Shown: positions 1,561 through 61,994 of the stretch, piece by piece | Layout of the letters: the number at the start of each line of letters is the position of its first letter | How positions within the stretch are numbered: position 1 is the stretch's first letter | Assembly: GCA_041644975.1 (NCBI GenBank) | Contig: JBAZQX010000004.1 | Coordinates: 9,189 to 73,188 of the forward strand | Reading direction: 5' to 3' | Origin: Candidatus Doudnabacteria bacterium | GTDB taxonomy: Bacteria > Patescibacteriota > JAQUNI01 | DNA length: 64,000 bases | The notes under the pieces: model-generated | The model's database searches: none | Told to the model about the DNA's origin: nothing | The model's input: the letters and a program-made list of their open reading frames with translations, nothing else | Translations under genes and position numbers: made by a program

Positions 1561-1708
1561 CAAATTTCCCAATTTCCGTGTCGCAAAATTATTATATTAT
1601 TTATAAAAATTTGGGCAAACCCCATTAGAAACTTCACCACAGCATAATTTATCAAAACGCGTTTTTGGCGAAATCTGTAAAGGATGGTTTCTAACGGGGC
1701 AAATCCCG

Positions 1709-2014
1709 TTAAACATCTTCTGGAATCGGCGGCGGTTGATTGGCTGGACTAACAGTGGGATACCGCCAAGCGCTGATCAGCCGCAGCTTGGCGCCGTGCT
1801 TCTGATACATCAGCCAAATTTCCGTAGGATGTTTTTTGCTGCCAGCGCGCTGCATTAAAGCCACAGTTTTTGGCGCCACGCCTTCTTCAATGCGATTGGG
1901 ATTTCGCAAAACTTTTTTCAGCCGATTTTCCGACAAACCATAAAAACGCATTTTTTCTTGACAATGCAATGTCCAAATAAACTTTTCACTTAATTTTGAT
2001 TTAATAATATTCAC
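1709..2014 (-). CDS. Small conserved hypothetical protein (DUF4258-like W-T-x-H-x-x-x-R-M motif, possible toxin-like fold)
   Basis: KFIWTLHCQEKMRFYGLSENRLKKVL pattern. Followed by a minus-strand terminator. Confidence 0.4.
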   Translation of the reverse strand: MNIIKSKLSEKFIWTLHCQEKMRFYGLSENRLKKVLRNPNRIEEGVAPKTVALMQRAGSKKHPTEIWLMYQKHGAKLRLISAWRYPTVSPANQPPPIPEDV

Positions 2015-2296
2015 CTTAGCAATTTAGCACCAAAAAATTTTAACCGCAATAAAAAACAACAGAAAAATTCCTGCTGCTTTATTTTTATTAACTAAATTTT
2101 TATTTAATGCTTGTCTCAAAAGAATCTAAAAGCGCTAAGGCTTCTGGCGCAGAAAATTTTGCTTTAGTAACCTTATTTTTGTTCGGATCAATCCCCGCAA
2201 CCATTGACAGATTAAAAAAAGTTGTTGGCTCCATAGTCCGAAGCGTTAGCGAGGCGAGCAGGGGGAGTGTAATTGGGGCTTGGGCATAATGGTCTT

Positions 2297-4087
2297 TTAT
2301 CTCTTCCTTTTATCACGGACGCGGTCGATTTCGGTCAATATTTTTTTCCTTAGGCGGACGGATTGAGGAGTGATTTCCAAATATTCATCATTGTTCACAA
2401 TTTCTAATCCTCTCTCAATGGTTAATTGAAGGGGTGGAGTTAGAATAAGCGCTTCCTCGGCGCCTTTGGAGCGCACATTAGTCAAATGTTTGCCTTTAGT
2501 GGGATTAACCGCCATCTCATCGCCTTTGGCTGTGTTGCCGATAATCATGCCCGCGTAAACTTCAGTGCCCGCGTTAATATAAAGAGCGCCGCGCTCTTGC
2601 AAATTATACAAAGCATAAGCGACAGCGGTACCGCGGGCCATAGAAACCATTGAGCCGACTTTTTTCTTTTTAATATTACCAACAAATAGTTTAAAACCGA
2701 TTACCTGACTATAAAGAATGCCTTCGCCCTTTGTATCAATCATGAAGTCGCCGCGATAACCCAATAATCCTCGAGTGGGAATTTCAAAAATAATGCGGGT
2801 ATAATTTTTTTCTTGGATTAGACTAGTCATTATCCCCTTTCTTCGGGATAATTTCTCAATTACCGTGCCCATAGCAAAATTCGGCACGCTAAGAGTTAAC
2901 TCTTCAAACGGTTCAAGCTTCACCCTATTTTCTTCTTTTATAATGACCTGGGGCTCGCTAACCTGAAGCTCGTGGCCTTCGCGCCGCATATTTTCTAATA
3001 AAATCGCGACATGCAATTCACCGCGGCCATATACTTTAAAATAATCTCCGGGCGAAAAATCAATTTTGAGACCTACATTCACTTCCAGTTCTCTTTCTAA
3101 TCTTTCCCGAATTTGGCGGCTGGTTACTTTGGCGCCCTCTTTGCCCACAAAGGGTGAATTGTTAACTGAAAAATTTAGAGAGATTGTCGGTTCATCAATA
3201 TTAATCGCGGGAAGAGCTTCCTCGTCGGGATCATTACAGACCGTTTCGCCGATATCAATATCAGGAAGACCGGCGAGCATCACAATATCGCCGGCAGAGG
3301 CTTCCGCCACTTCTTTCCTTTCCAAGCCTTGAAAGGTAAAGACTTTAGCAATTTTGCCCGGACGCGCCGCGCTGCCTCCCTTTTTAACATAAACTTTATC
3401 GCCCGCGTGAATAGTGCCTTCATAGACGCGGCAAATCGCCAATCGTCCCATAAAATTATCATAAGCAAGATTAAAAGGCTGGACTTTCAACTTCTTCCCG
3501 CTTAATCCTTCCTTGGAAGCGATCGGGACCTCCTTTAAGATAAGGTCAAGAAGCGGGGTTAAATCTTTGGATTCATCGCTTAGGTTTTTTTTAGCAATGC
3601 CTTCTCTGGCAATCGCGTAGACTAAGGGGAATTCAATTTGTTCTTCATTGGCGCCAAGATCAATAAAAAGTTCAATTAATTTATCATGCACCCAGGCTGA
3701 CCGCGCCGCTTCTTTGTCTATTTTATTAATCACTACGATCGGCTTTAATCCGAGCTCTAAAGATTTTTTAAGAACGAATTTGGTTTGGGGCATAGGACCC
3801 TCCTGCGCGTCCACGACTAGAATGACGGAATCTATGGAACGCAAAACGCGCTCCACCTCGGAACCAAAATCGACATGGCCTGGAGTATCCACGATGTTAA
3901 TTTTAGTTCCCTTGTAAAAAATGGAGGTATTTTTGGAGTAAATTGTAATGCCGCGCTCTTTTTCAAGATCATTGGAGTCCATACTAAATCCTTCTTCCAC
4001 CACACCGGTTTGACGCATTAGGGCATCGGTAAGGCTGGTTTTACCATGATCAACATGGGCAATAATGGCGATATTTCTAATTTCCAT
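2297..4087 (-). CDS. typA: Translational GTPase TypA/BipA
   Basis: 596 aa. N-terminal GTPase IAIIAHVDHGKTSLTDALM, DTPGHVDF, NKIDK, and EF-G-like domains II-V typical of BipA. Confidence 0.9.
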   Translation of the reverse strand: MEIRNIAIIAHVDHGKTSLTDALMRQTGVVEEGFSMDSNDLEKERGITIYSKNTSIFYKGTKINIVDTPGHVDFGSEVERVLRSIDSVILVVDAQEGPMPQTKFVLKKSLELGLKPIVVINKIDKEAARSAWVHDKLIELFIDLGANEEQIEFPLVYAIAREGIAKKNLSDESKDLTPLLDLILKEVPIASKEGLSGKKLKVQPFNLAYDNFMGRLAICRVYEGTIHAGDKVYVKKGGSAARPGKIAKVFTFQGLERKEVAEASAGDIVMLAGLPDIDIGETVCNDPDEEALPAINIDEPTISLNFSVNNSPFVGKEGAKVTSRQIRERLERELEVNVGLKIDFSPGDYFKVYGRGELHVAILLENMRREGHELQVSEPQVIIKEENRVKLEPFEELTLSVPNFAMGTVIEKLSRRKGIMTSLIQEKNYTRIIFEIPTRGLLGYRGDFMIDTKGEGILYSQVIGFKLFVGNIKKKKVGSMVSMARGTAVAYALYNLQERGALYINAGTEVYAGMIIGNTAKGDEMAVNPTKGKHLTNVRSKGAEEALILTPPLQLTIERGLEIVNNDEYLEITPQSVRLRKKILTEIDRVRDKRKR

Positions 4088-4230
4088 AAAAAAATTTAAT
4101 AAAGTTTTTGATAAAAAAACCCCGCTTACAAAAGAAGGGGGGAATTTTTCCGTTCCATCCTCGCTTTCTTTACTTAGATTATACTATATTTTTGTAAAAT
4201 GACAATAGCGACAAAAAAAATTAACTTTAC

Positions 4231-4259
4231 TTGCCAAATTTACGCCTTCGTGCTATTAT
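4231..4259 (+). promoter_or_regulatory. Sigma-70-type promoter: TTGCCA - 17 nt - TGcTATTAT (extended -10)
   Basis: Near-consensus -35/-10 with 17-nt spacing about 100 nt upstream of the 4358 ORF, which has a strong SD (AAGGAGGTAAGG). Confidence 0.55.
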
Positions 4260-4357
4260 ACACAGCTCTTGAATCCCCTACCGCAAACGGCGGAGTGTAA
4301 AAATTCAATAGACAACTGCATACTAGGAACTGTAAATCTATAAAGGAGGTAAGGAAG

Positions 4358-4630
4358 ATGTCCAGAGGGCTATATTATATCCCAATGTTACTGTTACATA
4401 CGGAAGAAGAGCTGGGCGAGCTAAAAGAAACCTTAACAGAAGCGCACAAGAGTTTGTTTGGCGCCCAACAAACAGAGGTGTTATTCAAAGAGATAAAAGA
4501 ATACTGGGGATTGGTGGCAGAGAGAATTGAAAAAGTCGCGCTTTATAAAAGAGAAACTGCCTCTCCCCTGCACATTTTTGTAGACAGCTTACCCAATGGC
4601 ACAGAAGATCTGATCCAGAAAACAGTATAG
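4358..4630 (+). CDS. Hypothetical protein; possibly the 5' part of a stop-interrupted gene continuing in the same frame to 4951
   Basis: Strong SD and promoter. ORF 4757-4951 (GTG start) is in the same frame, separated only by in-frame TAG (4628) and TGA (4724). Confidence 0.5.
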   Translation: MSRGLYYIPMLLLHTEEELGELKETLTEAHKSLFGAQQTEVLFKEIKEYWGLVAERIEKVALYKRETASPLHIFVDSLPNGTEDLIQKTV

Positions 4631-4756
4631 AGCTTAATCGCTTCAGGGGAAATCCCTGCCTACCAGATTATTGCCAAACTGCAAGCAGCCGGCGCAAAAG
4701 TGCACGGCACAGAAAATCTTGAGTGACTCATTAAAGAGGTCAACTATTGGAAAGCT

Positions 4757-4951
4757 GTGGTCGGGCGCGAGCGACAAAGGAACCCCCAAGAGGAAAAAGA
4801 GCTCCTTGAAAATCGCGATAAGGCGATAATTGACCGAATCAACGAAGTAGTGCCCCAAGAAGAAATAGGTATTATTTTCATCGGCAGAATGCACAATGTG
4901 GTAAAACCGCTAACCCAACCGCCCTACAACTTTGAAATAATCTATCTATGA
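4757..4951 (+). CDS. Hypothetical protein / downstream segment of the stop-interrupted gene
   Basis: Same reading frame as 4358-4630, GTG start, no SD of its own. Confidence 0.3.
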   Translation: MVGRERQRNPQEEKELLENRDKAIIDRINEVVPQEEIGIIFIGRMHNVVKPLTQPPYNFEIIYL

Positions 4952-4966
4952 AAGAAGGTGAAAAGT

Positions 4967-5503
4967 ATGCCGCGAGGCAAAGCAAGATGCGGGAAGTGTG
5001 GGTTCTTGGTAATTGCTGAAGTGGAGCAAATTATTGAATGCCCAGGTTGCGGCAGAAAATTCTATATACCTAATGAACCGCGATACACAAATCCTTTAAA
5101 TTCTTTAAGAAGCCACTCCATTGCTCGGTTAAGTTTGGGTCTTGGTTTGGGGCCTCTCTGGAATATAGAAGATTCAAGGCGCTTTACAGACGCACCTGAA
5201 AAAAAATGGGAGATACACCCAGAAGCAAGGCGCAAGGATTTGCGGATAAAGCTGCTGCCTTTCCCAGCAAGAAACGACCCCGAACTGATGCTAGAACATG
5301 GCTGGTTGAGGGTTATTGTAGAATTCTATGGTCACGATGAGGTTGAGAAGATTGGAGTGGCTGTAAGAAAAAGTGAGCTCATCCTTCAGAGCCACCTGTC
5401 TCTTTGCCCTTACCGCAACACAATTGCCTTGCCCGAGGGCTTTGGAACAATATCCGAAGCCACCTTGAGAAACGGCATACTAGAGGTGAGATTAAAAGAA
5501 TAA
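4967..5503 (+). CDS. Hsp20/alpha-crystallin family small heat-shock protein with N-terminal CxxC…CxxC zinc ribbon
   Basis: C-terminus IALPEGFGTISEATLRNGILEVRLKE is the Hsp20 signature. N-terminus CGKCG…CPGCG. SD GAAGGTG 7 nt upstream of the ATG at 4967. Confidence 0.75.
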   Translation: MPRGKARCGKCGFLVIAEVEQIIECPGCGRKFYIPNEPRYTNPLNSLRSHSIARLSLGLGLGPLWNIEDSRRFTDAPEKKWEIHPEARRKDLRIKLLPFPARNDPELMLEHGWLRVIVEFYGHDEVEKIGVAVRKSELILQSHLSLCPYRNTIALPEGFGTISEATLRNGILEVRLKE

Positions 5504-5524
5504 TCTCCCTACTATTAACCGTTT

Positions 5525-5581
5525 AAGGATGTCATTCGCGAATGACATCCTTAAAGATATCCTTGTGATATCTTTTTTTAT
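5525..5581 (+). terminator. Tandem hairpins (28-bp perfect palindrome aaggatgtcattcgcgaatgacatcctt, then agatatc…gatatct + T-run) terminating hsp20
   Basis: Perfect stems followed by TTTTTTT. Confidence 0.65.
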
Positions 5582-5711
5582 TTAGTCAGAATAAGAATCT
5601 TCGTTGGTTCAATTCTCTGAATTGAACCATTAGTTTATGCAGAATTATCTGGTTCAGGTCAGGAGACCTGAATCAACAAAGCGCATAATAGTAGACTTAG
5701 GAAAAATGAGG

Positions 5712-5963
5712 TCAACTCTGATTTTTTATTAAATTAAGTTTATTTTCTCGCCGCCAGCCCTTAATCTCGGCTTCTCTTTGTCTTGCCTCTCTTAGTGTTT
5801 TATATTCCTCCGAATACTTTAAAACAACCGGCCTACGAATTTTAGTATAATGGGCGCCATATTTTGATTGATTATGTTCTTGCAATCTCTTTTTTAGATT
5901 ATTTGTACAACCAACATATAAAGAATTATCGACGCATTCAAGAATGTAAGTATAATATAACAT
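5712..5963 (-). CDS. GIY-YIG nuclease family protein (small, URI domain)
   Basis: YTYILECVDNSLYVGCTNNLKKRLQEHN…REAEIKGW is the classic GIY-YIG motif set. Confidence 0.85.
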   Translation of the reverse strand: MLYYTYILECVDNSLYVGCTNNLKKRLQEHNQSKYGAHYTKIRRPVVLKYSEEYKTLREARQREAEIKGWRRENKLNLIKNQS

Positions 5964-6254
5964 TTTTATCTACTCGCTTTGTAACTTCCTCACTTCGTCG
6001 TCCTTCGTCGCTTCACTCCTCGGAGTTCCTCAGTGTCTCACTTTGCTCGAGCTGGGCATAAGGTACAATCTTCGAACTTTTTTTATGCTCAATGAATGAA
6101 AAAATGAGTTTGTGGAGAGGAAAAAGGTTAGGGTTCGGAAAATTTATGCCTCAGTTGTTTCCTTGAACAACTTCAAATAATTGGCTTGATGGGGGGTGAA
6201 ATTATTGGATTAGAAACATTGTCTTGCTAGTCGAGAAATGAGAATTAGGGAAGC

Positions 6255-7016
6255 TTAATCAATAAATCTGAAGGTATCTAACATCTGATGTGAAATTTTA
6301 TTATTTTTTATGGGTTCGGAGTAATTAGTATTTTCTTTTGCCACAGGAAATTCAAAGCTATACATTTTATCACTATTGGCTAAAAAAATTATTTCTTCTG
6401 ATCCCTCAATAACAAATACTCCGTCAAGCGCTACGGCTTGGATCTCGTTGACTTTAATCTGTTTAATCGTATCATAGTAATAGGGATTAGGAGCTCTGCC
6501 TGCTTTATATTCATTTTCTGCTTCTTGGATTAACTTATTGACATATTCAATTGAATTAAGGTTTTTTGGATTTTCCTCAATAAATAATGTCACTTCATAC
6601 CAAGCGGTTTCCTCAGAATTTGAAGGTGCGTGCCATATTATGAAAGGCGTTCCCTTACCTACGAGTTCGGGATGTAATCCGTGTTCTAAGATTTCCCAAT
6701 TGGGAGGATATTGAATTTCAAATCCATACTCTTTATTTTTATATATATTCCACTCTGTTTTTGGATTAACTGAAATTACTCCAATTAGTTCTTTTTTTGG
6801 TAAACTATATGGTTCTTGTTGTTTTTCTGAAGGCTCAAATTCGTCGTATGATGAACTTATGGGATGAATTACAATGGGTTCTTGTGAATTGAAATTAATC
6901 CCCTTTCCTCTGAAAATTTGCAGACTACTATACGATATTATCAAAACAAAAAAAGCACCTAAAACGATAAGGATAATTTTAAGAGTGATATCTTTGGAGA
7001 AAATTGACTTATTCAT
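6255..7016 (-). CDS. Membrane-anchored hypothetical protein (N-terminal TM, extracytoplasmic domain)
   Basis: TM helix ILIVLGAFFVLIISYSSLQIF, then a domain with no recognisable motifs. Confidence 0.5.
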   Translation of the reverse strand: MNKSIFSKDITLKIILIVLGAFFVLIISYSSLQIFRGKGINFNSQEPIVIHPISSSYDEFEPSEKQQEPYSLPKKELIGVISVNPKTEWNIYKNKEYGFEIQYPPNWEILEHGLHPELVGKGTPFIIWHAPSNSEETAWYEVTLFIEENPKNLNSIEYVNKLIQEAENEYKAGRAPNPYYYDTIKQIKVNEIQAVALDGVFVIEGSEEIIFLANSDKMYSFEFPVAKENTNYSEPIKNNKISHQMLDTFRFID

Positions 7017-7276
7017 GTTTTGATAATTATATTACCAAAAAATACAGAAATTGTCAACTTTTTAGATTTGATTTTTGCCTTCGAACCAAACATTTAGGCT
7101 AATCTAAGGATTTTTCAGGAAAACCGTACGGTCTGGGTATCAGGAGGAGTAAAATCTTCGAACCACCAATTTTGGCTTGTTTGAGAGAAAAAACGAGCAT
7201 AAAAAAACACCCGTTTGTCTGGGCTGGGCATCGTGGACAACGTTAGAACTATTATCCAGCAACAAAATGAGTATAT

Positions 7277-7831
7277 TTACATACCTACCTTATGTAACTC
7301 GTAAGCCACAATTGTAGAAAAAGATATTATAGCGACCTGCTCAAGAAAGTTTCTATATAAATCAAGTTCATCAGTTAAGATAGCATAACCTTTGTCCTTA
7401 GCTGTTGCAATAATAGAAATATCCGTAAATCCGAATTGTATGACTTGCTCTCGCTCTTTTAAAAGGGTTCTAAAATGAATATAGTTTTCTTCCCATTTCT
7501 CTATCTCTTGAATAATTCTGGGGAAATATTCATTTAATTTTTTCCCCTTGAATAGTCTTATACGAGAGAGACTGTTTACTTCTGCAAGAATTTGAGGTGT
7601 TATAACTATTCTGCCAATAAATATTTTTAAGATTTTTTCTAATAAATCAAAGTGCTCCTCGGTATAATTTTTGCCATTATCTGTCATCAATGGGCAATAT
7701 TTTAAATAGCCCTTGTCATATATACCAATTAAAAAAAGAAGTAATATATTTGTATCAAGAATTAAACACGCCTCAGGGTGTCTGAAGCGATAATAACCAA
7801 TCTTATTTATATCTGATAAGTATTTAACCAC
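7277..7831 (-). CDS. PIN-domain protein (VapC-like nuclease fold)
   Basis: LILDTNILL (N-terminal Asp), …EVNSL…, FTDISIIATAKDKGYAILTDELDL (C-terminal T-x-D) fit the PIN acidic quartet. Confidence 0.6.
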   Translation of the reverse strand: MVKYLSDINKIGYYRFRHPEACLILDTNILLLFLIGIYDKGYLKYCPLMTDNGKNYTEEHFDLLEKILKIFIGRIVITPQILAEVNSLSRIRLFKGKKLNEYFPRIIQEIEKWEENYIHFRTLLKEREQVIQFGFTDISIIATAKDKGYAILTDELDLYRNFLEQVAIISFSTIVAYELHKVGM

Positions 7832-7843
7832 AGAGATTAATTT

Positions 7844-8149
7844 TTACTCCGACTCTTTTCTGCTTTTCTTGTCTTTCATAGAAACCACCTCACCTCCATC
7901 TGTAATTTCAAACTCCTTATACTCTCTCTTTTTATCAAATGGAAACTCTCCAATATTGTCGTAACTCAAAACAACCATCCATTTTTTTTTAATGCCACTC
8001 CCTACGGGCACAAATTCCTCAATTCTGACTTCAGATATCTTTTGAGTCGGTGGTGTTATATCTGCTAGATATTTATAAGCCGCAAGCACTATTTCTCTTG
8101 GTGTTTTAGACATAGTGTAATTATATTTAATTTTTGTAAGACTTCCCAC
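7844..8149 (-). CDS. Small hypothetical protein immediately upstream of the PIN gene (candidate partner/antitoxin-position gene)
   Basis: 13-bp spacing to the PIN ORF, same strand. No known motif. Confidence 0.4.
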   Translation of the reverse strand: MGSLTKIKYNYTMSKTPREIVLAAYKYLADITPPTQKISEVRIEEFVPVGSGIKKKWMVVLSYDNIGEFPFDKKREYKEFEITDGGEVVSMKDKKSRKESE

Positions 8150-8322
8150 CTCAAGGTTGTGGATAAAGTAACATAGCTTATTTAGTCAATAGAAGTCAAG
8201 GGAAATGGATTTTAGAATTCTTATTTGTCTTTTTGCTTTTTATTTTTTATATTTGTCAAATATATTAGTTTATTTCATTATATCACAGTTTTACCCCACC
8301 CCGCTACTCACTATATCTTGGA

Positions 8323-8356
8323 AATAAAAAAAAGGTCAAGTTTCAAGACCTGACCC
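8323..8356 (-). terminator. Intrinsic terminator (same ggtcaggtcttgaaacttgacc hairpin as at 1538-1559) after the 8396-8794 gene
   Basis: Hairpin + T-run on the minus strand. Confidence 0.6.
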
Positions 8357-8395
8357 CAAATTTCCCCTTGATTGTTTGAATCTTTATTTTCCCTC

Positions 8396-8794
8396 TCATA
8401 TGTCTATCTGTTTCATTTTCCATTCAATACAGGCGGGAACATAAGTATCTCTGGTATGCCCATAATCATTACCATTTTGACAAAAAATATAACTATCTAT
8501 ATCAAACCAATCAACCTTTTCTTTACACATTTTTTCTCGCTGTTCAAGGAAAAAGCCTGTCAAATCAGGATTAGTTTGCATACTTTGCTTCCAATTTTCA
8601 TATACTTCATCATACTTTCTATCACACTCTTCTTGAAATTTTATTCGGTAACCTAATAATTTTTCCTTCCGTGCTCTTTCTTCTCCCAATTTTTGTTGAT
8701 TAGGCAAGAAAAATAAATAGTAATAAAAAACTGAACCAGCGATTATTAAAATGACTATAATTGCTACGATTTTGATAATTTTGTTTAAATCCAT
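8396..8794 (-). CDS. Small membrane-anchored protein; paralog of 12012-12362
   Basis: N-terminal TM then FYYYLFFLPNQQKLGEERARKEKLL, parallel to FYHYVIYIPNKEDLIRIEEKVDKEL in the paralog. Cys-containing C-terminal domain. Confidence 0.55.
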   Translation of the reverse strand: MDLNKIIKIVAIIVILIIAGSVFYYYLFFLPNQQKLGEERARKEKLLGYRIKFQEECDRKYDEVYENWKQSMQTNPDLTGFFLEQREKMCKEKVDWFDIDSYIFCQNGNDYGHTRDTYVPACIEWKMKQIDI

Positions 8795-8860
8795 AGTATT
8801 TTCTTCGTTGATTCAATTCTCCCGAATTGAACCACTAGTTTCTGCAGAATTATCAGAGAC

Positions 8861-9340
8861 TTAAGCTAACGAACTCTTTTTAAACTCCCTTTCACTATCA
8901 GTAAGTATCGCCATTATTAAATCTTTTTGATTTTGCCAAATAGTTTGGCTAATAGAAACAACTTGTTCGTTAGTTAAATTTTTAGCAACTTGCTCTGCTA
9001 ACCTATTACCTATATTTTTAACCATATCTATTAAAGCCTGTTCTCTGTCTCTTTGTGCCTTAATTCTAAAATAAGCAATTACCACAGAAAGACCCAAAAT
9101 GAAAAATCCTAACACGCCAAATAAAATCTGTTTCCGGAAATTTTGCTCATTGAAGACACCAAATACAATAACTGATCCACCTACATAGGTTATCACTCCA
9201 ATAACGCCAAATTCTCTTAAAACCTTTACCAGATTTGATTGTATTAGGTTCATAAAATCACTTATTAATTTTTTAATTAAAGGCCATAACCTTTGCAATC
9301 GGCAAGCTCCATGAAGACTAGAATTTTTATTATTAGTCAT
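8861..9340 (-). CDS. Hypothetical membrane protein (2 TM); real start probably MNLIQSNL at about 9252
   Basis: Hydrophobic helices VIGVITYVGGSVIVFGVF and ILFGVLGFFILGLSVVIAYF. Confidence 0.45.
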   Translation of the reverse strand: MTNNKNSSLHGACRLQRLWPLIKKLISDFMNLIQSNLVKVLREFGVIGVITYVGGSVIVFGVFNEQNFRKQILFGVLGFFILGLSVVIAYFRIKAQRDREQALIDMVKNIGNRLAEQVAKNLTNEQVVSISQTIWQNQKDLIMAILTDSEREFKKSSLA

Positions 9341-9445
9341 AATTTAGCCAAGCTAGAGCTTTATCTAACGGCTAAGGGAGATAGGTGCCCTGCGCCTGTG
9401 GCTACGGAGCGCTTTACTCCCACCCCCTCCATCTCCCCCTCGGGC

Positions 9446-9632
9446 AGGGGGAGTGTAATTGGTGCTGGGCATCGTGAACGATGTTATAACCATATTTCAA
9501 CGACAAACCGAGTATATTTACATACCAAATTTAAGTCTACAAGCTTAAAATCATTATATCAAATTTTACCCTACCCTGCTACTCACTATTGTTTTGCTCT
9601 TTGTTATTTTACCCCACCCCGCTACTCACTAT
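9446..9632. repeat. Repeat family A copy (longest copy, plus an extra partial TTTTACCCCACCCCGCTACTCACTAT unit)
   Basis: cagggggagtgtaattggtgctgggcatcgtgaacg…gagtatatttacataccaaatttaagtctacaagctta…ttttaccctaccctgctactcactat. Confidence 0.8.
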
Positions 9633-9757
9633 ATTACTAAGGGGGGTAGGGAGTGCCAGATTGAAAATCTAACGAATAAAAGAATTCTTATAGTCGCTCC
9701 GCACAGAAGTGTTTTTATCTTGAAATATATTTTAGTCCGATTTTTAAAATCTCCTCT

Positions 9758-9861
9758 AATGTTAGAACTATATTACAACGACAAAATGAGTATATTTACA
9801 TACCAGATTTAAGTCCACAAGCTTAGTTTATCAGATTTTACCCTACCCCGCTACTCACTAT
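9758..9861. repeat. Repeat family A copy
   Basis: gttagaactatattacaacgacaaaatgagtatatttacataccagatttaagtccacaagcttagtttatcagattttaccctaccccgctactcactat. Confidence 0.8.
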
Positions 9862-9870
9862 TTCTTAAAA

Positions 9871-9901
9871 ACAAAAAGCTCCCATTTCTGGGAGTTTTTT
9901 T
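9871..9901. terminator. Bidirectional intrinsic terminator (ctccca-tttc-tgggag with flanking A-run and T-run)
   Basis: 6-bp GC-rich stem flanked by AAAAA and TTTTTTT. Confidence 0.5.
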
Positions 9902-10244
9902 GTTGGAATAGCAAGCTACTTAAAAGGAAAACAAGATTTCGTCGCTTGTTTCGCCCTTTGTTCGCTCCCTCAAACGAGGCTCTTGGTATGTCCGTAAACC
10001 AATGTTGCTTTTAACCGCACAAGGCGGACTTATTGCACAACACCGTTTTCAGCCAAAAGACCGAAAAATACCAACTCTCACTATTCCAATCAAATTATAT
10101 CAAATTTTTCTTATAGCTTCCAGTAACTCCTGCTGGCGTTTTTGAAGCGAGGCGTCAAAGATAATACGGTATTCAAAGTTCTTATTTGCTTGCTGGAACT
10201 CCTTAAAGCCGATTTCTTTTGCTTACCTCGCAACATAACTTTGA

Positions 10245-11705
10245 TTATTTGAACCAATTTACAATTTTTTTGAAGACCCTACCGATCTTTGCTGGAATGT
10301 CCGAAAAGGTCGATTTTATAAATGACAAAATTTTGTCATTTTTATTTATAGATACGCTACTTTCCTGACTACTGTTACTATTATCTTTATTTTCTTGTTC
10401 CGCACCCTGCTCATCCGTTGTCATTATCGTATTTTGCGAGCTTATGGCATTTTTTTCTTTCTCAACTACCACGGCTTTATCAGTGATTTCCAAACAACTA
10501 TTTCCAACTTCTTTAAAACCTTCATTACATTGCCATACATCTGCAGGGCTATCCGTTACTGGATGTGCGTTTGAGGGTATTTTAATACATTCAGTCTTAT
10601 TCAACGAAAGCGCATATCCCGCGCTACAAGTTTTTCTTTTTTCTGGGCTGTTTTGTTCTTGCGTTATCTTGGTTTGATTATTCGTTACTGGGGGGATCGC
10701 AAAGTCTAGAGGGGGAGAACTGTCTTCCTCTTCCTTTTTTAAAGTGTAATCAGAATCAATTTTTTCTAAACTTGTAATGTCGCAGGTTTCATCGTCATCT
10801 TGCAAAACAATCTTATCCCATCTATCAACATCAAAATCAATTCCTAAATTGACTACAATTCTATCATTTAAATATCTCTTAATAGAGGATGTATAGCATC
10901 CAGAATCATAAGTGATTAGGTAATATTGGTAATTATATTCACTTTTGATAATAGCCTGCCTCTCATCTGTGTTAAGTTCTTTTAAAATAAAATAAACATT
11001 ATTTTGTTTTTCAACACATTGATTATCATCATTTAAAGTATAATTACTATCACATTCACATTTTTTATTTAAAGAATTATAAGAAGAGTGAAGACCATAT
11101 TTAGTGAAGCAAGAGACGCATTCATTGCCACCGCCTATAGTTTTTTGCCTCAGAATATAGCCGTTTCGACACTCACAGACATCAGATAATGAATTGTATG
11201 TCGAATTATACCCAAGTTTATTGTGGCAATATTCGGTTGTATCTATGCATTTTGTTTTTCCAAAAAGGTCTTCACTAAAAATATACCCATAACGACACTT
11301 ACAAGTATCAGACAAAGAATCGTATGTCGAGCCGTATCCATATTTGTCTTTGCATTGCTGTTCTGTAGAAATACATTGTGTTCTTCCTACTGCATCTTTT
11401 CCCAAAGAATATCCATATCCGCACTCACAAGAATCATTTAAAGAGTTATATTTTGAGTTAAAGCCATATTTATCTTTACACATTTGGTCTGCCGATACAC
11501 AGCTAGCATTACCAAGAATATCTTTACCAAAAACATAACCACTCATACATTTACAGCTATCTGTTAAAGAATTATATGTCGCCCATATACCGTATTGAGA
11601 ACACTCACCGTAGCTTTGAGTGATTTTAATGTGAAATAAAAACAAACCTGACAAAATAAGCAAAACAGTTATGGCATAAAATTTATGATTGAATTTGAAA
11701 TCCAC
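10245..11705 (-). CDS. Secreted/surface Cys-rich tandem-repeat protein (about 7 copies of a roughly 44-aa C…YG.NS.YNSLSD.C.C..GY…G…C module) with Ser/Asn-rich C-terminal tail
   Basis: N-terminal TM/signal (FYAITVLLILSGLFLFHI). Repeats such as QCKDKYGYGSTYDSLSDTCKCRYGYIFSEDLFGKTKCIDTTEY. Confidence 0.6.
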   Translation of the reverse strand: MDFKFNHKFYAITVLLILSGLFLFHIKITQSYGECSQYGIWATYNSLTDSCKCMSGYVFGKDILGNASCVSADQMCKDKYGFNSKYNSLNDSCECGYGYSLGKDAVGRTQCISTEQQCKDKYGYGSTYDSLSDTCKCRYGYIFSEDLFGKTKCIDTTEYCHNKLGYNSTYNSLSDVCECRNGYILRQKTIGGGNECVSCFTKYGLHSSYNSLNKKCECDSNYTLNDDNQCVEKQNNVYFILKELNTDERQAIIKSEYNYQYYLITYDSGCYTSSIKRYLNDRIVVNLGIDFDVDRWDKIVLQDDDETCDITSLEKIDSDYTLKKEEEDSSPPLDFAIPPVTNNQTKITQEQNSPEKRKTCSAGYALSLNKTECIKIPSNAHPVTDSPADVWQCNEGFKEVGNSCLEITDKAVVVEKEKNAISSQNTIMTTDEQGAEQENKDNSNSSQESSVSINKNDKILSFIKSTFSDIPAKIGRVFKKIVNWFK

Positions 11706-11743
11706 AAATTATATTTTAGTATTAGAAATTATTTAATTTCTAG

Positions 11744-11995
11744 CTAATAACGCAACTTATAACTTTTATAGGGGCTTGTATATCCTTTTGCGCCTGTGTA
11801 TGGGTTGTAATTTCCTTTCGTTGACCAGTTATCTAATCTGCTTCTGTTGGGGCTAGTCCTATAATATGGCTGGACATATGTGCCAGTGCTTTTTTTGTAA
11901 TAACTCCTAACTCTGATTGTGCGTGCTTCGGCAGAAAAGACAAACAAGCCAAAAACGAAAGACAGAATAATTGATAAAACAATAAGTTTTTTCAT
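11744..11995 (-). CDS. Small secreted Tyr/Lys-rich protein with signal peptide
   Basis: MKKLIVLSIILSFVFGLFVFSAEA signal, then Y-rich 60 aa. Confidence 0.5.
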   Translation of the reverse strand: MKKLIVLSIILSFVFGLFVFSAEARTIRVRSYYKKSTGTYVQPYYRTSPNRSRLDNWSTKGNYNPYTGAKGYTSPYKSYKLRY

Positions 11996-12011
11996 AATTT
12001 TCCCTTTTTAA

Positions 12012-12362
12012 TTATTTTATAGGATATTTTTTAAAACATTCATCTTTGATTTGTTGATAGGCTTTCTTTAAATCATCTGCTCTATTTGAAGCCAATAAAC
12101 AACTACCATCTGTGCCGATTTCCCTATTATCTACTTTGCAATATTCATTCCATTGGTCGCGAGATGTAGTTTTAGCGTCTTCTAGACAAGCCTCAAGCAT
12201 TGATTTATTTAATTCTTTATCCACTTTTTCCTCAATTCGTATTAAGTCTTCTTTATTAGGAATATATATAACATAATGATAAAAAATAGCAAAACCTATC
12301 AATAATACGGCGGCTGCTAAAGTAGCTTTGAACCAATTAATCTTTTTTATTTTTTCTTTCAT
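12012..12362 (-). CDS. Small membrane-anchored protein; paralog of 8396-8794 (start taken at MKEKIKKINWF)
   Basis: Same TM + PN(K/Q) + coiled segment + Cys-containing C-terminal architecture. Confidence 0.5.
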   Translation of the reverse strand: MKEKIKKINWFKATLAAAVLLIGFAIFYHYVIYIPNKEDLIRIEEKVDKELNKSMLEACLEDAKTTSRDQWNEYCKVDNREIGTDGSCLLASNRADDLKKAYQQIKDECFKKYPIK

Positions 12363-12366
12363 AAAT

Positions 12367-13308: not shown

Positions 13309-13373
13309 ATTCTTTTGGAATCTACATATTTTACCCCACCCCTCATTCACTTATATTTTTAGAAACAGGATTT

Positions 13374-15269: not shown

Positions 15270-15520
15270 AAAATTAATTTCAGTAGATAATTATTATTTT
15301 GTAAAATGCAATCTTTTCATATTTTTAAATTATTTTTCAAGCATCACTATTTAACCAGAAACACGAAGCTCCCCGCCAGCGATAGCCTTGCGGCTACCCA
15401 TATCCCTTTCGAGATATGACCGACTAAGGTGCTCTGAACGAGGAGCTTGATGCCTTAGTCGGTTTTATGCCATACCTCATAGCAAAACTATCAGGGTTAG
15501 GCAATTTAATTTTCAAAATA

Positions 15521-15745
15521 CTATGTTATGTGCTTTCTCTCTAACAACCTCTTAATATCATCTTTTCTATAACGCCTTATCTTTTTTTCACCAATCCTGA
15601 TTGCAACCAAAATACCTTTTTTGTCCCACTGGCGCAAGGTGTTAGGATGACATTTTAAAATATCACAAGTCTCTTTGAGGGTAAGAAGTTCTGGCATATC
15701 TTGTCTGTTTTTTACTACTTTTACCATTGATTTTTTACTTAACAT
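15521..15745 (-). CDS. Helix-turn-helix DNA-binding protein, excisionase/MerR-like (Xis-type)
   Basis: LLTLKETCDILKCHPNTLRQWDKKGILVAIRIGEKKIRRY is the HTH_17/Xis pattern. Confidence 0.65.
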   Translation of the reverse strand: MLSKKSMVKVVKNRQDMPELLTLKETCDILKCHPNTLRQWDKKGILVAIRIGEKKIRRYRKDDIKRLLERKHIT

Positions 15746-15815
15746 TTGATACCATTATCATACAGCAGAAAAAAATAATCTGCAAATATTAAAATGAAAA
15801 TTACTATAAATTACT

Positions 15816-17423: not shown

Positions 17424-17460
17424 CGAAGTTAACCTTTAGCTTTTAATAAATCTCTTACAT

Positions 17461-17496
17461 AAAACTCCTCACAAAATGGGGAGTTTTTTGTTTTTC
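17461..17496 (+). terminator. Intrinsic terminator after the 535-aa ORF
   Basis: aactcc…ggagtt stem + TTTTTTGTTTTT. Confidence 0.6.
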
Positions 17497-17578
17497 TGCG
17501 ACAGAGCGTGAAATTCGCCATCTATAAGTAGAAGGTCGCAAAAAATAAAAAAATCACAATTACCCAAAATTAAATTAT

Positions 17579-17839: not shown

Positions 17840-17842
17840 ATT

Positions 17843-18040: not shown

Positions 18041-18060
18041 TAAAATTTAACATTAAAATT

Positions 18061-52728: not shown

Positions 52729-53553
52729 TCATTTTGCATTTTGATTTTTACATTTTACATTATTTACCAGTTCTACCAGATTCATAAGAAGCATCATCAC
52801 AGTCATTGGTCCGACGCCGCCCGGCACAGGCGCCAGAAAAGAAGCTTTTTTCTTCACGCTCGCCGCTTCCACATCCCCTTGAATTTTTCCCGCCCTCCAG
52901 CTCGTACCGGCATCAATCACGACGGCTCCTCTCTTGATCATCGTCCCGCGAATTAAATTGGGTTTACCCACACCCGAAATGATAATATCAGCTTTTTTAA
53001 CTTGAGCGGCTAGAGCTTTTGTATTTTGATCGTAAACCTTTACGCTTGCGCCTAATTTTTGCATTAAACGCGCCGCCGGCTCACCCACTAATTTTCCCGC
53101 TCCCACTACCGCCACCTCGCAACCTTCCACCGCGACCTTATATTCGGCGAGGAGCGCGGCAATTCCTAAAGCCACAGGCGAGACTATGGCACGATTTTTA
53201 AAACCCTCTACGTCCATCTTCTTAGGTATACATTTCAGAACTTGATCTCTATCAATACCCTTAGGCAGGGGCAACTGCACCACTATGCCGTGAGGTTCTT
53301 TTTGTTTAATCGCCAAACGCAATATTTGGCAAATCTTTGGAGCGGGGGAAGAAGCAGGCAGGGTGACTAAGGAAAAGCTGACCCCCAAAGAATGGCAAAT
53401 TTCCTTTTTCCTGCGCACAAAAATTTGGGAGGCTCGATCATGCCCGACCATCAAAACTAAGAGGCGAGGTTTTACAGATAGACCTTTTATCTCCTTCTGA
53501 AGATAACGAAAAAATTTTTGGGCTAGTTTTTTACCATCTAAAATCTGGAACAT
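52729..53553 (-). CDS. folD: Bifunctional methylene-THF dehydrogenase/cyclohydrolase FolD
   Basis: ILDGKKLA…, VQLPLP, GAGKLVGEP, GVGKPNLI. Confidence 0.9.
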   Translation of the reverse strand: MFQILDGKKLAQKFFRYLQKEIKGLSVKPRLLVLMVGHDRASQIFVRRKKEICHSLGVSFSLVTLPASSPAPKICQILRLAIKQKEPHGIVVQLPLPKGIDRDQVLKCIPKKMDVEGFKNRAIVSPVALGIAALLAEYKVAVEGCEVAVVGAGKLVGEPAARLMQKLGASVKVYDQNTKALAAQVKKADIIISGVGKPNLIRGTMIKRGAVVIDAGTSWRAGKIQGDVEAASVKKKASFLAPVPGGVGPMTVMMLLMNLVELVNNVKCKNQNAK

Positions 53554-53629
53554 AATGTTGGGAATCAGGAATAAGGAATTATGAATTAGGAATTATGAAG
53601 CAGGAATTAAATATTTGTCTCTAATTGCT

Positions 53630-53679
53630 CTACTCACTCCTTTTCAAAAATTTCGTAATTTGTAGGACTCCTTATTCCT
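53630..53679 (-). promoter_or_regulatory. Conserved about 50-bp block (rc AGGAATAAGGAGTCCTACAAATTACGAAATTTTTGAAAAGGAGTGAGTAG) upstream of folD; near-identical copy upstream of mreB (58472-58521)
   Basis: Two copies in the same position/orientation relative to two minus-strand operon starts. Contains TTGAAA -35-like hexamer. Confidence 0.5.
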
Positions 53680-53705
53680 TATTCCTGCTTCCTGATTCAT
53701 TCTTC

Positions 53706-55631
53706 CTACTGCCTATTAAAATACCACTCTAACACATTTTTTGCGATAGGTACAGCTGCTGTTTCACCGCCGCCACCGCCCTCGACCAGAATAGTCAGCA
53801 CAATCTTAGGACGGTCATAAGGCGCAAAACCAGTAAACCAAGCATGGGTAGGCTGTCCACTGCCCGCAAATTGCGCGGTGCCTGTTTTTCCCGCTACCGC
53901 CACAGGAAGGCTATTAAGCAAACGGGCAGAACCATCGGTGACAGTTTGGCGCATACCTTGCCGCACCACCTCTAAACTTTTGCTACTAATAAAATCTTTT
54001 CGGATAATCTCAGATGGGATTTCTGTTTCTTTTTTTTCTATCTCATCAATCATCTTGCAGCCCATCTTTGGCTTGTAAAGAATCCCGCCATTCGCAATGG
54101 TAGCAATATAATTAGTAAGCTGCAATGGGCTAACTAAAATATCCCCTTGACCAATACTCACATGATAAGTGTCGCCGATGTACCATTGTTCCCCTTTGAC
54201 TTTTTCTTTCCATGCCGCATCAGGCACGAGACCCGCCGTTTCTCCCGGTAAATCCACGCCAAGAGGGACATTGAAACCGAACTTGCTGGTCCAGGCTTTT
54301 ATTCTATCTATTCCTAAACCCTCAATTCCAATGTCTTCATTCCCTCCGCCTACCGTATAAAAAAACACATTACAAGACTCGGCGATCGCGCGCCTGACAT
54401 CCACCGCGCCGTGGGCTTTCCAGTCCGGGAAATTCCAAACTGTCCCTCCCCAACCTTGGTAAGTGAGACTCCCCGGGCAATTCACCACTTGAGACGGGGT
54501 AATAATTTTCTCTTCTAAAGCGGCGGCGGCGATGAGGGGTTTAATAATGGAACCCGGGGGATATTCGCCGGAAATCGCTCGATTAAACAAAGGCTGATTA
54601 GGATCACGATTCAACTCGTTCAATTTCTCCTCGGAAATCCCTTGGGTAAAAAGGTTATTATCATAAAAAGGGAAACTGACCAGCGCTAAAATGCGTCCAT
54701 TCTCCGGATCCATAGCCACAACGGCTGCTCTTTCTGTTTTTGTTTGGGAAAGCATTGCCTTAACTTCCTCGGCAATCTTTTTTTCTAATTCTAGGTCCAA
54801 AGAGAGCTGTAAACTGCGACCCGCCTCGGGACTTTCTCGCCCTATGATCTTGGCAATTTGCCCGCGCGAATTTACCTCCGCAATCTTGCGACCATTTTTA
54901 CCTTTTAAGACTTGTTCGTAGGAATATTCTACACCTTGTTTGCCAATATAATCGGTTAAAAAGTAACCCTGTTCTTTATTTGCGGCGTATTCTTCCGGCG
55001 AAATCCTGCCGGTATAACCTATAATGTGGGCAATGAGTTCCCCGCCTAGATATTCCCGCACGGGAGAACTAAGAAGACTAATCCCTGGCAGAGAAGATAA
55101 TTTTGCGTCCAGAATTAACGCCTGTTCGCGTCCTAAATTACGCACCAAGATTTCCGGTTCATAAGAATGAGGATCCGCCTCCCTAAACGCGATTTCAATC
55201 TCTGTCGCGTCTTTCCCTAAAATCTGGGCTAAATTTTCAATAAAACTTTTTCTCTCAGGAGGAGGAGGCAAATCCGCAGGAATGAACACAACCTCGAAAT
55301 TGGGAATGTTGCGCACCAATAAGTTTCCCTTCTGATCATAAATAACGCCCCGAGGAGCCATCAGGCTTAAAGTGCGAATCCGATTGCTTTCCGCTTCCCT
55401 GGTGTAAGACTCTCCAGCTAAAATCTGCAGGGAAAAAATACGCCAACCCAAGATCAAAAAACAAATAATCACTACTAATCTTAAAAGACTCAAGCGCCCT
55501 AAGCGGAAGCGCAACTCCGCCGGCCTTAAATCATCCTCTTGCGCAAAACCTTCCTGCCCCTCCCAATCCTTCTCCGCTAAAAACTTTTCGGAAATCTTAA
55601 ATTCGGATTTTGAAAAATTAAAAAAATTCAT
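53706..55631 (-). CDS. mrdA: Penicillin-binding protein 2 (peptidoglycan D,D-transpeptidase, elongasome)
   Basis: SIIKP (SxxK), ESCN (SxN), AGKTGTA (KTG). Immediately downstream of mreBCD. Confidence 0.85.
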   Translation of the reverse strand: MNFFNFSKSEFKISEKFLAEKDWEGQEGFAQEDDLRPAELRFRLGRLSLLRLVVIICFLILGWRIFSLQILAGESYTREAESNRIRTLSLMAPRGVIYDQKGNLLVRNIPNFEVVFIPADLPPPPERKSFIENLAQILGKDATEIEIAFREADPHSYEPEILVRNLGREQALILDAKLSSLPGISLLSSPVREYLGGELIAHIIGYTGRISPEEYAANKEQGYFLTDYIGKQGVEYSYEQVLKGKNGRKIAEVNSRGQIAKIIGRESPEAGRSLQLSLDLELEKKIAEEVKAMLSQTKTERAAVVAMDPENGRILALVSFPFYDNNLFTQGISEEKLNELNRDPNQPLFNRAISGEYPPGSIIKPLIAAAALEEKIITPSQVVNCPGSLTYQGWGGTVWNFPDWKAHGAVDVRRAIAESCNVFFYTVGGGNEDIGIEGLGIDRIKAWTSKFGFNVPLGVDLPGETAGLVPDAAWKEKVKGEQWYIGDTYHVSIGQGDILVSPLQLTNYIATIANGGILYKPKMGCKMIDEIEKKETEIPSEIIRKDFISSKSLEVVRQGMRQTVTDGSARLLNSLPVAVAGKTGTAQFAGSGQPTHAWFTGFAPYDRPKIVLTILVEGGGGGETAAVPIAKNVLEWYFNRQ

Positions 55632-58471: not shown

Positions 58472-58521
58472 TTCTACTCACTCCTTTTTAAGAATTTCGT
58501 AATTTGTAGGACTCCTTATTC
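58472..58521 (-). promoter_or_regulatory. Second copy of the conserved upstream block (upstream of mreB)
   Basis: ctactcactcctttttaagaatttcgtaatttgtaggactccttattcct, 2 mismatches vs the folD copy. Confidence 0.5.
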
Positions 58522-58554
58522 CTGATTCATTATTCATTATTCCTCCCTCCCGAC

Positions 58555-61113: not shown

Positions 61114-61140
61114 AGAAATTTCTAATTGACCTAAGAGGTC

Positions 61141-61288
61141 GCGCCTGCCTGCCGGCAGGCAGGCGAAAGCGCAACACGAGTAATTGCCCGCATTAGGTCG
61201 TTCAGACTCTAATGAGTCTTCAGACTCGAAGAGCGGATCTCCAAAGCGCGAAACGGTTAATTAGACTAATTAGACATTAGATTAATGA
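61141..61288. repeat. GC-rich mosaic repeat E (copy 2)
   Basis: gcctgccggcaggcaggcgaaagcgcaacacgagta…ggtcgttcagactctaatgagtcttcagactcgaagagcggatc…cggttaattagactaattagacattagattaat. Confidence 0.75.
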
Positions 61289-61839
61289 GGCATTATTTCC
61301 TTCTCTTTCTTCTCGCTCATCGTTTCCAATTTCAGGGTATATTCCTTGGTCTTCTGATCCAATTCCTCCAAACCCCGAAACTTCTCATCCTCGGACATAG
61401 TCCCTTGTTTGGTCGCTTCTTGGACCTCTTCCCTGACTTTGTCGCGCCAATGCCGCAAAGTAATCCGACTCTGCTCCAGTTTTCCCCTCAAAACCTTGAC
61501 GAGCTGCTTCCTCCTCTCCTCCGTAAGATCAGGGAGTTTAATCCGAATGACATCCCCTTCTGTGCTGGGATTTAAACCGAGGGGGGAGCTAGCGATAGCC
61601 TTTTCCACCTCCTTGATCACATTTTGATCCCAAGGTCTCACCACTAACATATTCGGTTCCGGCGCGGAAATGCTGCCCAGTTCCCGAATCTGCATCCGCG
61701 AGCCGTAAACCTCGGCGACTAAATTTTCCACCAAAGAAGGATTTGCCCTGCCCGTCCGTATCCCCGCCAACTCTTCACTAAAATGCTTTAATACCGCTTC
61801 AAACTCGGAGACGTATTTTTTAAAGATTAACTCAAACAT
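61282..61839 (-). CDS. frr: Ribosome recycling factor
   Basis: 185 aa, …AGIRTGRANPSLVENL…IRIKLPDLTEERRK…. Confidence 0.9.
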   Translation of the reverse strand: MFELIFKKYVSEFEAVLKHFSEELAGIRTGRANPSLVENLVAEVYGSRMQIRELGSISAPEPNMLVVRPWDQNVIKEVEKAIASSPLGLNPSTEGDVIRIKLPDLTEERRKQLVKVLRGKLEQSRITLRHWRDKVREEVQEATKQGTMSEDEKFRGLEELDQKTKEYTLKLETMSEKKEKEIMPH

Positions 61840-61866
61840 ATAGTGAACCCCATTAGAGAATTTCTT

Positions 61867-61994
61867 TATCTAACCCCGTTTAAAAATTTATTTTTAACGG
61901 GGTCAGCGTCTATATTTTTCCCACCATCCCGTTACAAATTTATTTGTAACAGGATGAACTTTCTCTAACGGGGGTAAAAAAATTATTTTTTAAC
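61867..61994. repeat. Nested-hairpin element (CCCCATTAGAGAA…TCTCTAACGGGGG) with inner ccccgtttaaaaatttatttttaacgggg and cccgttacaaatttatttgtaacagg hairpins
   Basis: Related to 36194-36340. Confidence 0.75.

Follow-up and report, generated by a model that had tools for sequence, protein, structure and literature searches.

Very small palindromic elements with 4-bp flanking duplications in a Candidatus Doudnabacteria genome, probably a family of MITE-type DNA transposons

[quoted passage not shown] The family exists. Arms matching CCCCRTTAGA with at most one mismatch occur 14 times in the window and 11 of these are exact, compared to 0.17 predicted from base composition. The arms pair up into six elements with ends CCCCRTTAGA…TCTAACGGGG, and a relaxed search for paired arms returned 12 pairs in the window versus 0.14 in shuffled sequence. 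All six elements also fold far better as single strands than shuffled sequence (z = −2.7 to −8.8). The elements have no coding capacity, range in size from 26 to 170 nt in the family as a whole, and are flanked in the window by housekeeping genes. Three further 29-mers of the family lie just beyond the window in the same genome, which gives a density of 9 copies in ~84 kb.

E1, 1620-1699, 80 nt, inverted ends CCCCATTAGAAAC / GTTTCTAACGGGG, flanks CAAA (1616-1619) and CAAA (1700-1703)
E2, 23811-23839, 29 nt, 11-bp arms and loop GTCTACT, in frame in dnaX (open reading frame (ORF) 23472-25109, minus strand)
E3, 26972-27068, 97 nt, flanks TTGA/TTGA, between divergent genes (a 232-aa ORF and corA)
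E4, 36195-36340, 146 nt, composite, outer inverted ends CCCCATTAGAGAA / TTCTCTAACGGGG, flanks TTTA/TTTA, between recR and rplU
E5, 40079-40107, 29 nt, loop GTTTACT and one arm mismatch, flanks TAAA/TAAA, between divergent genes
E6, 61848-61973, 126 nt, composite, flanks decayed to TGAA/GTAA, between a BNR-repeat gene and frr
29-mer outside the window, in an HI0933-like oxidoreductase gene, flanks CAAG/CAAG
29-mer outside the window, in the ArsA-like gene of a gas-vesicle cluster
29-mer outside the window, carrying the E5 loop

Perfect 4-bp direct repeats flank four of the six window copies (E1, E3, E4 and E5). E1 lies ~600 nt downstream of bipA and adjoins a 101-aa ORF of unknown function (1709-2014), and E6 lies 8 nt upstream of the frr start codon. 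The four long copies of the initial annotation are all real, with the last one at 61848-61973 and not at 61867-61994, a shift of ~20 nt. Its interval 26950-27078, given as one element, contains E3 at 26972-27068; the remainder is formed by the arms of a prior host hairpin (GGAAAGGTCAA…TTGACCTTCC, outer arms ~26950-26960 and 27069-27078) that is older than the E3 insertion and was entered at its stem-loop junction. A 39-nt hairpin-containing repeat, AAAAAAGGTCAAGTYTCAAGACCTGACCCCAAATTTCCC, which resembles this host hairpin, is found at 1532-1570 and 8328-8366 in two copies that are 97% identical. The short copies had been described as perfect palindromes and instead consist of 11-bp arms around a 7-nt loop, with one arm mismatch in E5. 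The copy at 23811-23839 was correctly located, and it lies in frame inside dnaX rather than in intergenic DNA. The placement of the long copies between genes and next to gene ends needs amending, since the right arm of E4 is the source of the last rplU codons and the TAG stop and E3 stands between divergent genes; E5, likewise, is not the neighbour of a gene end and stands between divergent genes. Directly beside E5, a segment of ~1.7 kb with two ORFs (40235-41752; 308 and 176 aa, no Pfam match) is missing from both related genomes.

A cyanobacterial origin of the window was rejected, as it has a single HIP1 site, and its DnaX is 100% identical to a protein encoded on a 101-kb contig of a Candidatus Doudnabacteria MAG. 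We compared these loci with a second ENA assembly, made independently, of this genome (L231 and L232, 99.97-100% identical), with the relative JAQUNI010000001.1 (GCA_028717685.1; L110, L233, L235 and L236; ~92-95% DNA identity; hereafter JAQUNI) and with the more distant CAYWOB010000007.1 (L001, ~78% identical). The sole clean presence/absence case is dnaX. E2 adds the residues FAPLDSRHLTG to DnaX, and among nine DnaX homologues the window protein alone has them. The dnaX gene of JAQUNI (L110, ~95% DNA identity over the gene) is without exactly 33 nt, or 11 codons, which equals the 29 nt of the element plus 4. At the site itself, JAQUNI reads CCTTCC-TTA-CCCGAA and the window CCTTCC-TTTG-[29 nt]-TTG-CCCGAA. 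E2 is identical to E5 at 27 of 29 positions and to the intact form of that 29-mer at 28 of 29; it resembles other 29-mers of the same genome and not any long copy. E2 is a recent insertion. Elsewhere in dnaX (~23880-23960), a further 24-residue segment that includes a 14-nt tandem duplication (CAAATTTAGGCGGG twice) is missing from the closest relative.

To characterize the family beyond this genome, we searched IMG/VR and metagenome contigs with the pattern CCCCRTTAGA-N5-35-TCTAAYGGGG. Matches were obtained in 29 IMG/VR stretches and at least 120 metagenome contig stretches, on contigs that span 26-65% GC, and the family signature is present in most of the matched copies. Part of the 29 viral matches are probably unrelated terminator hairpins that share the arm. 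End and flank statistics were taken from 145 non-redundant copies from both sources among the matches listed. Identical 4-bp flanks were found in 56 of the 145, compared to a permutation mean of 7.7 (maximum 16) and to 0-2 in shifted controls. Another 19 copies match at three of the four flanking positions, and flanking repeats of 3, 5 or 6 bp show no enrichment. The duplicated 4-mer follows the pattern YNNR, led by TTTA (13 copies), TAAA (12) and TTCA (6), with G favoured before it and C after it, so that the target consensus is G|YNNR|C. When copies whose two sides differ are counted as well, YNNR stands on both sides of 105 copies.

The arms of these copies have a fixed outer part and a variable inner part. 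The first ten positions are fixed and read CCCCGTTAGA, and the next three, 11-13, differ among copies (AAT, AAC, GAT, GAC, GGC, TGT and others), yet match between the two arms of any one copy, and the arms of the long copies agree there too. The perfect stem has a modal length of 13 bp (66 of 145 copies) and a sharp fall at position 14. Across thirty distinct 29-mers, 28 cells have changed on both sides, compared to 9.3 in shuffles, and none of 500 shuffles reached 28. The interior is far less constrained: it may be nothing at all (26 nt total), a 3-7-nt loop (29 nt total) or up to more than 100 nt of unrelated sequence, and ten 29-mers with AAT arms have identical arms and ten different 3-nt loops. 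Stem position 5 shows G:T mismatches about as often as A:C mismatches (~15 and ~19 copies, estimated by eye among the matches listed), and the 29-nt set has three G:U pairs and three unpaired cells there. We also observed that the CpG at arm position 5 (CCCCG / CGGGG) recurrently carries a C-to-T or G-to-A change in one arm only (e.g. E1, E4, E6 and the JAQUNI HI0933 copy), which hints that this cytosine is hypermutable and possibly methylated; one such change alters an encoded peptide from T to M between the two genomes. Further copies outside the window, compensatory changes between copies (here at stem positions 11-13) and flanking target duplications were the three signs for which the initial annotation had proposed to look, and all three are found.

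Several copies recur as whole units in unrelated surroundings. The E5-type 29-mer with loop GTTTACT is found at differently flanked sites on contigs of 39-54% GC, and the E5 29-mer with one differing position occurs in the viral contigs L095, L097 and L106 and the metagenome contigs L220 and L224. A 40-mer, CCCCGTTAGAAATTCCAGCGGGGCATTATTTCTAACGGGG, which resembles the JAQUNI version of E3, is carried by at least seven unrelated metagenome contigs. Tandem copies that share one common duplicated 4-mer occur in L201 and L145, and nested copies in L185 and L209. Hosts of the family include Patescibacteria, Omnitrophota and Mu-like phages, the latter represented by several viral contigs with copies, and copies lie in both orientations relative to neighbouring genes.

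At fixed sites, the elements differ between close relatives. E1 is identical in the independent assembly of the same genome (L231), and its entire region is missing from JAQUNI. E3 is present in JAQUNI (L110) as the same element at the same site, at 41 nt instead of 97 and thus 56 nt shorter; the main gap of 46 nt falls between two GCGRGGCATG direct repeats of the window copy. The E4 site of JAQUNI holds a different, unrelated 55-nt element with the same TAAA flanks. The E5 site is filled in all three related genomes, each with different content, long in L001 and short in the window. E6 is the same element in JAQUNI with exchanged internal modules and has intact TTTA/TTTA flanks there.

The two composite long copies, E4 and E6, are homologous and lie in opposite orientation. 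A relaxed arm search showed that their inner hairpins carry arm-like ends themselves:

E4 inner arm-like hairpin, 36216-36241, CCTGTTACAAAT…ATTTGTAACGGG
E4 inner short-form hairpin, 36310-36340
E6 nested 29-nt family member, 61874-61902
E6 nested variant (TCCCGTTACAAAT…), starting at 61927

The inner hairpin CCCGTTACAAAT…ATTTGTAACGGG has a compensated change in both arms, and the JAQUNI orthologue of the inner hairpin CCCCGTTTAAAAAT…ATTTTTAACGGGG still starts CCCCGTTAGAAAC. The inner hairpins of E4 and E6 are diverged family members. E4 additionally holds one unrelated hairpin, and no relatives of the long-element interiors were found outside this genome. The long nested forms probably arise when new copies insert into or beside resident copies and internal deletions then remodel them, which would result in close relatives that differ in content at the same site. 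The E5-type loop GTTTAC itself fits the preferred target G-YNNR-C.

Most copies of the family are intergenic, and those within genes follow a simple arithmetic. In 84 of the 145 copies the length is 2 mod 3, so length plus 4 is a multiple of three. Among copies with enough flanking sequence, 19 of the 78 with this length lie inside open frames of at least 60 codons on both sides, compared to none of the 50 with other lengths. Random sites are embedded in open frames in ~40-55% of cases; therefore the family is depleted in genes, and only frame-preserving copies persist there. One frame of the arms contains TAG, and the other two are stop-free and read PVR…SNG or PL(E/D)…LTG. In-gene copies add 10-18 residues (e.g. 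in DnaX, MurG, a MiaB-like enzyme and an ArsA-like ATPase). Relative to homologues, the insertions are clean in MurG (L203, 18 aa) and in the MiaB-like enzyme (L150, 11 aa), and the ArsA-like and HI0933-like proteins of this genome read …CPVRNDISNGV… and …APLEASSLTGQ…, respectively. A 26-nt copy with flanks CAGG/CAGG lies in a linker of LptD on a 64%-GC Omnitrophota contig, and the host range is therefore wider than Patescibacteria. The ArsA-like gene (L232 3615-5654, ~6-8 kb past the window end) also contains another palindromic insert, distinct from the first, of 36 nt and in frame (CCCGCCCGCCTTGCTTCGCAAGGCGAAGCGGGCGGG, encoding the 12 aa PARLASQGEAGG), which is missing from a 97%-identical variant. 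This suggests that further families of small palindromic inserts are active in this genome.

Next, we considered which enzyme could mobilise these elements. Pfam searches of the window ORFs showed no transposase domain and no integron integrase. The sole recombinase in the window, a large serine recombinase beside a tRNA-Gln gene, was rejected because it makes no duplications. The Mu transposition machinery, whose MuA and MuB are encoded on copy-bearing phage contigs, was rejected on duplication size and ends, as the duplications made by Mu are 5 bp long and its ends are TG…CA. When 1155 ORFs from the matched loci were clustered all against all, no recurrent transposase-like cluster emerged; the recurrent clusters, with Pfam used on the unknowns, consisted of housekeeping genes, recombinases of the XerC-like and serine types, and ExeA-like ATPases that belong to pilus clusters. 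Where arms 150-4000 nt apart had matching flanks, they either belonged to two small copies that are separate elements or had housekeeping genes (e.g. MurG) between them, and solo arms were degenerate or nested copies only. A 2-kb arm pair in L215 was rejected as a parent element, since what lies between its arms is TatD and radical-SAM genes. The DNA examined, which covers ~10% of this genome, contained no Y1/RAYT gene. By the 5'-CC ends and the duplication size, the best guess would be an IS1380/piggyBac-like, IS5-like or IS701-like DDE enzyme, which we take as a lead. IS5 and IS701 make 4-bp duplications.

Taken together, these data suggest that the elements form a MITE-type family of non-autonomous DNA transposons that are very small and non-coding, a reading to which we assign a probability of about 75%. 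Apart from a cognate autonomous element, every feature by which a MITE can be recognised here is present: terminal inverted repeats, a target duplication of fixed length, presence/absence at dnaX, no coding capacity and multiple copies. Of the two options in the initial annotation, the transposon is therefore the one that we favour, given inverted ends, 4-bp target duplications, an empty site in a relative, copies in unrelated genomes, lack of coding content, and nested and tandem copies. A transposase supplied in trans would recognise the 10 conserved end bases and make target cuts staggered by 4 bp. A folded single-stranded hairpin, or the copying of one arm from the other, might be part of the cycle: the arm-to-arm matching at the non-conserved positions 11-13 suggests a hairpin intermediate or arm templating, and the fact that the unit can measure just 26-29 bp, at which length a duplex cannot bend, argues for an unusual step.

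Several observations weigh against this interpretation. Neither the window, nor ~84 kb of the genome, ~77 kb of the close relative or ~1.17 Mb of loci, yielded an autonomous element or a transposase with these ends. About 60% of copies are without a perfect duplication. With an ancestral TTR, the E2 flanks TTTG and TTG(C) do not agree base for base with a simple gain of 29 + 4 nt unless an extra 1-nt shift is assumed, and at the one other polymorphic site observed (M50 peptidase / proS) the empty site is not clean. Finally, a 26-29-bp duplex is too short for the classical paired-end transposase complex, and this calls either for an unusual mechanism or for a different origin of the short forms.

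Such a different origin is the main rival to transposition of the short copies. A larger transposon that shares these ends could have left the copies of 26-33 nt behind in situ as non-mobile remnants, either through internal deletion or when gap repair following its excision was abortive; the ends and the duplication would be kept. E3 does shrink in place, being 56 nt shorter in the relative with its main gap between direct repeats; at the E5 site, L001 has a long element where the window has a short one; E4 and E6 have lost modules differentially; and a 29-bp duplex would presumably be hard to move by a classical DDE synapse. However, no parent larger than 170 nt was found anywhere in the ~1.17 Mb, the recently inserted E2 matches 29-mers of its own genome rather than long copies, and identical 29-mers and 40-mers, loops included, stand at differently flanked sites in unrelated contigs. 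The AAT-arm 29-mers, ten with the same arms and ten different loops, also point to a constraint on the short unit itself. We consider this origin unlikely. Movement as single-stranded hairpins by an HUH (Y1) enzyme, in the manner of REP/REPIN-RAYT or of palindromic elements derived from IS200/IS605, appears less probable still. It would suit small palindromes in the size range of REPs and a constrained stem, with its covariation at positions 11-13 and its sharp 13-bp boundary. Single-strand transposition by HUH enzymes, however, makes no target duplication and requires a fixed flanking tetranucleotide, whereas the family has a 4-bp duplication of variable sequence and no such tetranucleotide, and no DNA examined contained a Y1/RAYT gene.

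The elements could also be immobile and kept by host selection for a function, either as structured RNAs or as DNA hairpins (terminators, elements of RNA stability or palindromes that bind proteins); this includes the structured RNA of the initial annotation, which is not retained as the primary explanation. The predicted folds are strong, E1, E4 and E6 lie near gene ends or starts, the stems show compensatory changes, and some viral matches are followed by terminator-like T-runs. These compensatory changes are just as compatible with a DNA hairpin or with matched inverted repeats, and position 5, where G:T mismatches are about as frequent as A:C mismatches, is unlike an oriented RNA helix. 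No Rfam family matched at its gathering score, with chance-level matches only at E up to 1; no T-tract lies 3' of the window copies; copies stand in either orientation to genes and within coding sequence and divergent promoter regions; interiors are unrelated between genomes; and the flanks carry target duplications, with an empty site in dnaX. A functional role of this kind is therefore very improbable. Even less credit can be given to chance similarity or palindromic chimeras of assembly. Assembly errors can create palindromes and some viral matches are probably unrelated terminators, but the 11 exact arms compare with 0.17 expected, orthologous copies are found in two related genomes and reading frames are kept. 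The identical copies in two independent assemblies of this genome effectively refute an artefact.

A bolder form of the transposon interpretation is conceivable, and we regard it as less likely than not. The replicating unit may be the bare 26-29-nt hairpin, that is, two 13-nt ends plus 0-3 nt, or up to 7 nt if the stem is shorter. It would then be the smallest transposable DNA that makes a duplication, would move via a folded single strand, would be spread by phages between phyla (Patescibacteria, Omnitrophota) and would routinely write peptides of 10-18 residues into essential proteins of streamlined genomes. If the short copies truly move, they would set a new lower size limit for transposable DNA and would imply a transposase that needs just a 13-bp end and no spacing between ends, which is of mechanistic interest and a possible minimal-cargo tool. 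The family also bears on genome content more widely. It shows that even candidate-phyla-radiation genomes of ~1 Mb, usually deemed repeat-poor, carry about one selfish insertion per 10 kb. Insertions in replication and cell-wall genes are a source of protein length variation, and insertions also cause annotation errors in the form of extended ORFs, borrowed stop codons and borrowed start regions. An element common to phages and hosts of very different GC could serve as a tracer of gene flow among uncultivated groundwater and sediment microbes.

The window and the adjoining contig contain other features. A lower-GC segment (34-37%) at ~4100-23400 ends at the tRNA-Gln gene (23310-23384, minus strand) and includes the large serine recombinase (21705-23402); after the same tRNA-Gln, the close relative JAQUNI carries different genes. 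The segment is probably an integrated mobile element or prophage. It has repeats of its own, a 67-nt repeat at 1370, 7240, 9481 and 9759 and the repeat TTTTACCCCACCCCGCTACTCACTAT at 1445, 8287, 9562, 9605, 9834 and 13327. Intergenic tandem heptamers (GGAATTA/TGAATTA-like) are found at 23373-23485, 25100-25147, 53552-53706 and 58473-58550, and the last two regions fall within a 78-nt repeat whose two copies are 86% identical. A full-length LOOT RNA match (RF03000; 15381-15503, minus strand; 88.9 bits, gathering score 46.4) lies upstream of a same-strand 631-aa ORF (13374-15269). The lysyl-tRNA synthetase at 49464-51581 (minus strand) has a C-terminal extension of ~200 residues, and the annotation of orthologues in related genomes includes an HD domain (a faint Pfam match). 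Just past window position 64000, L232 700-8400 holds the gas-vesicle cluster (GvpA/K, GvpL/F three times, GvpG, GvpO and the ArsA-like ATPase), which seems unusual for Patescibacteria.

To place the family among known systems, we compared it with several classes of small repeats. An intrinsic terminator was rejected, as no T-tract follows the window copies and copies also lie in coding and promoter regions; at E4, a terminator scan detected a separate recR terminator only. Integron attC sites are also imperfect palindromes, and the arms GTTAGAT / ATCTAAC fit the core-site consensus GTTRRRY / RYYYAAC. Here, however, the two motifs stand in the reverse order, each copy is a dispersed singleton flanked by duplications, neither an integrase nor a cassette array is present, and many copies read GTTAGAA, outside the consensus; an attC identity was therefore rejected. 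The IS1380 family and piggyBac superfamily have 5'-CC(C) ends and 4-bp duplications (TTAA in piggyBac, 4-5 bp in IS1380), and the piggyBac end CCCTAGAAAG has TAGAAA in common with the family end CCCCGTTAGAAAT, which we take as a lead only. In contrast to these, the family targets a loose YNNR (TTTA and TAAA commonest) rather than TTAA, and no such transposase was found near any copy. Two subfamily consensus sequences were compared by BLAST with the plasmids of PLSDB and with GenBank phages and matched nothing, and our literature search found neither a paper with the family motif in a relevant context nor a report of MITEs in candidate-phyla-radiation bacteria.

The closest overall likeness is to bacterial MITEs (e.g. 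Correia/NEMIS, ERIC/IRU and RUP), which have been reviewed (PMC10969869). The family shares with them multiple non-coding copies with terminal inverted repeats, a target duplication and hairpin potential, mostly intergenic positions with occasional in-frame gene insertions, and the need for a transposase in trans. It differs in size, with a unit of 26-29 bp that is little more than two 13-bp ends, compared to roughly 50-400 bp for known MITEs. Named MITE families mostly duplicate TA, whereas this one duplicates 4 bp at YNNR. It also has no known parent insertion sequence, occurs across phyla and phages and not in one genus, and has interiors that are unrelated between lineages.

Rickettsia palindromic elements, which are ~100-150 bp long and are found in frame in genes of Rickettsia only (PMC10969869), offer a second parallel, namely palindromic selfish DNA that a bacterium with a small genome tolerates in frame in unrelated housekeeping genes, where it adds a peptide. 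In-frame insertions of the present family were likewise observed in DnaX, the ArsA-like and HI0933-like proteins, MurG, the MiaB-like enzyme and LptD. Its description sets it apart, with sizes of 26-170 nt, hosts among Patescibacteria, Omnitrophota and phages, mostly intergenic copies and an in-frame rule that follows from the arithmetic of length plus 4. We know of no regular target duplication reported for the Rickettsia elements. REP/REPIN sequences (RAYT) resemble the family as dispersed, high-copy palindromes of 20-40 nt that are probably mobilised as hairpins and form doublets or composites. They are extragenic and have a conserved flanking tetranucleotide without target duplication; in contrast, the family has variable YNNR 4-mers duplicated on both sides and enters genes. 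In Nostoc and other cyanobacteria, the small dispersed repeats SDR4-6 are reportedly 21-27 nt long, look mobile, have hairpin potential and are often nested (Elhai et al. 2008). Their sequence and host group differ from those of the family, and to our knowledge they lack defined 13-bp inverted ends and a 4-bp duplication. These cyanobacterial repeats would be the nearest precedent for mobile DNA this small.

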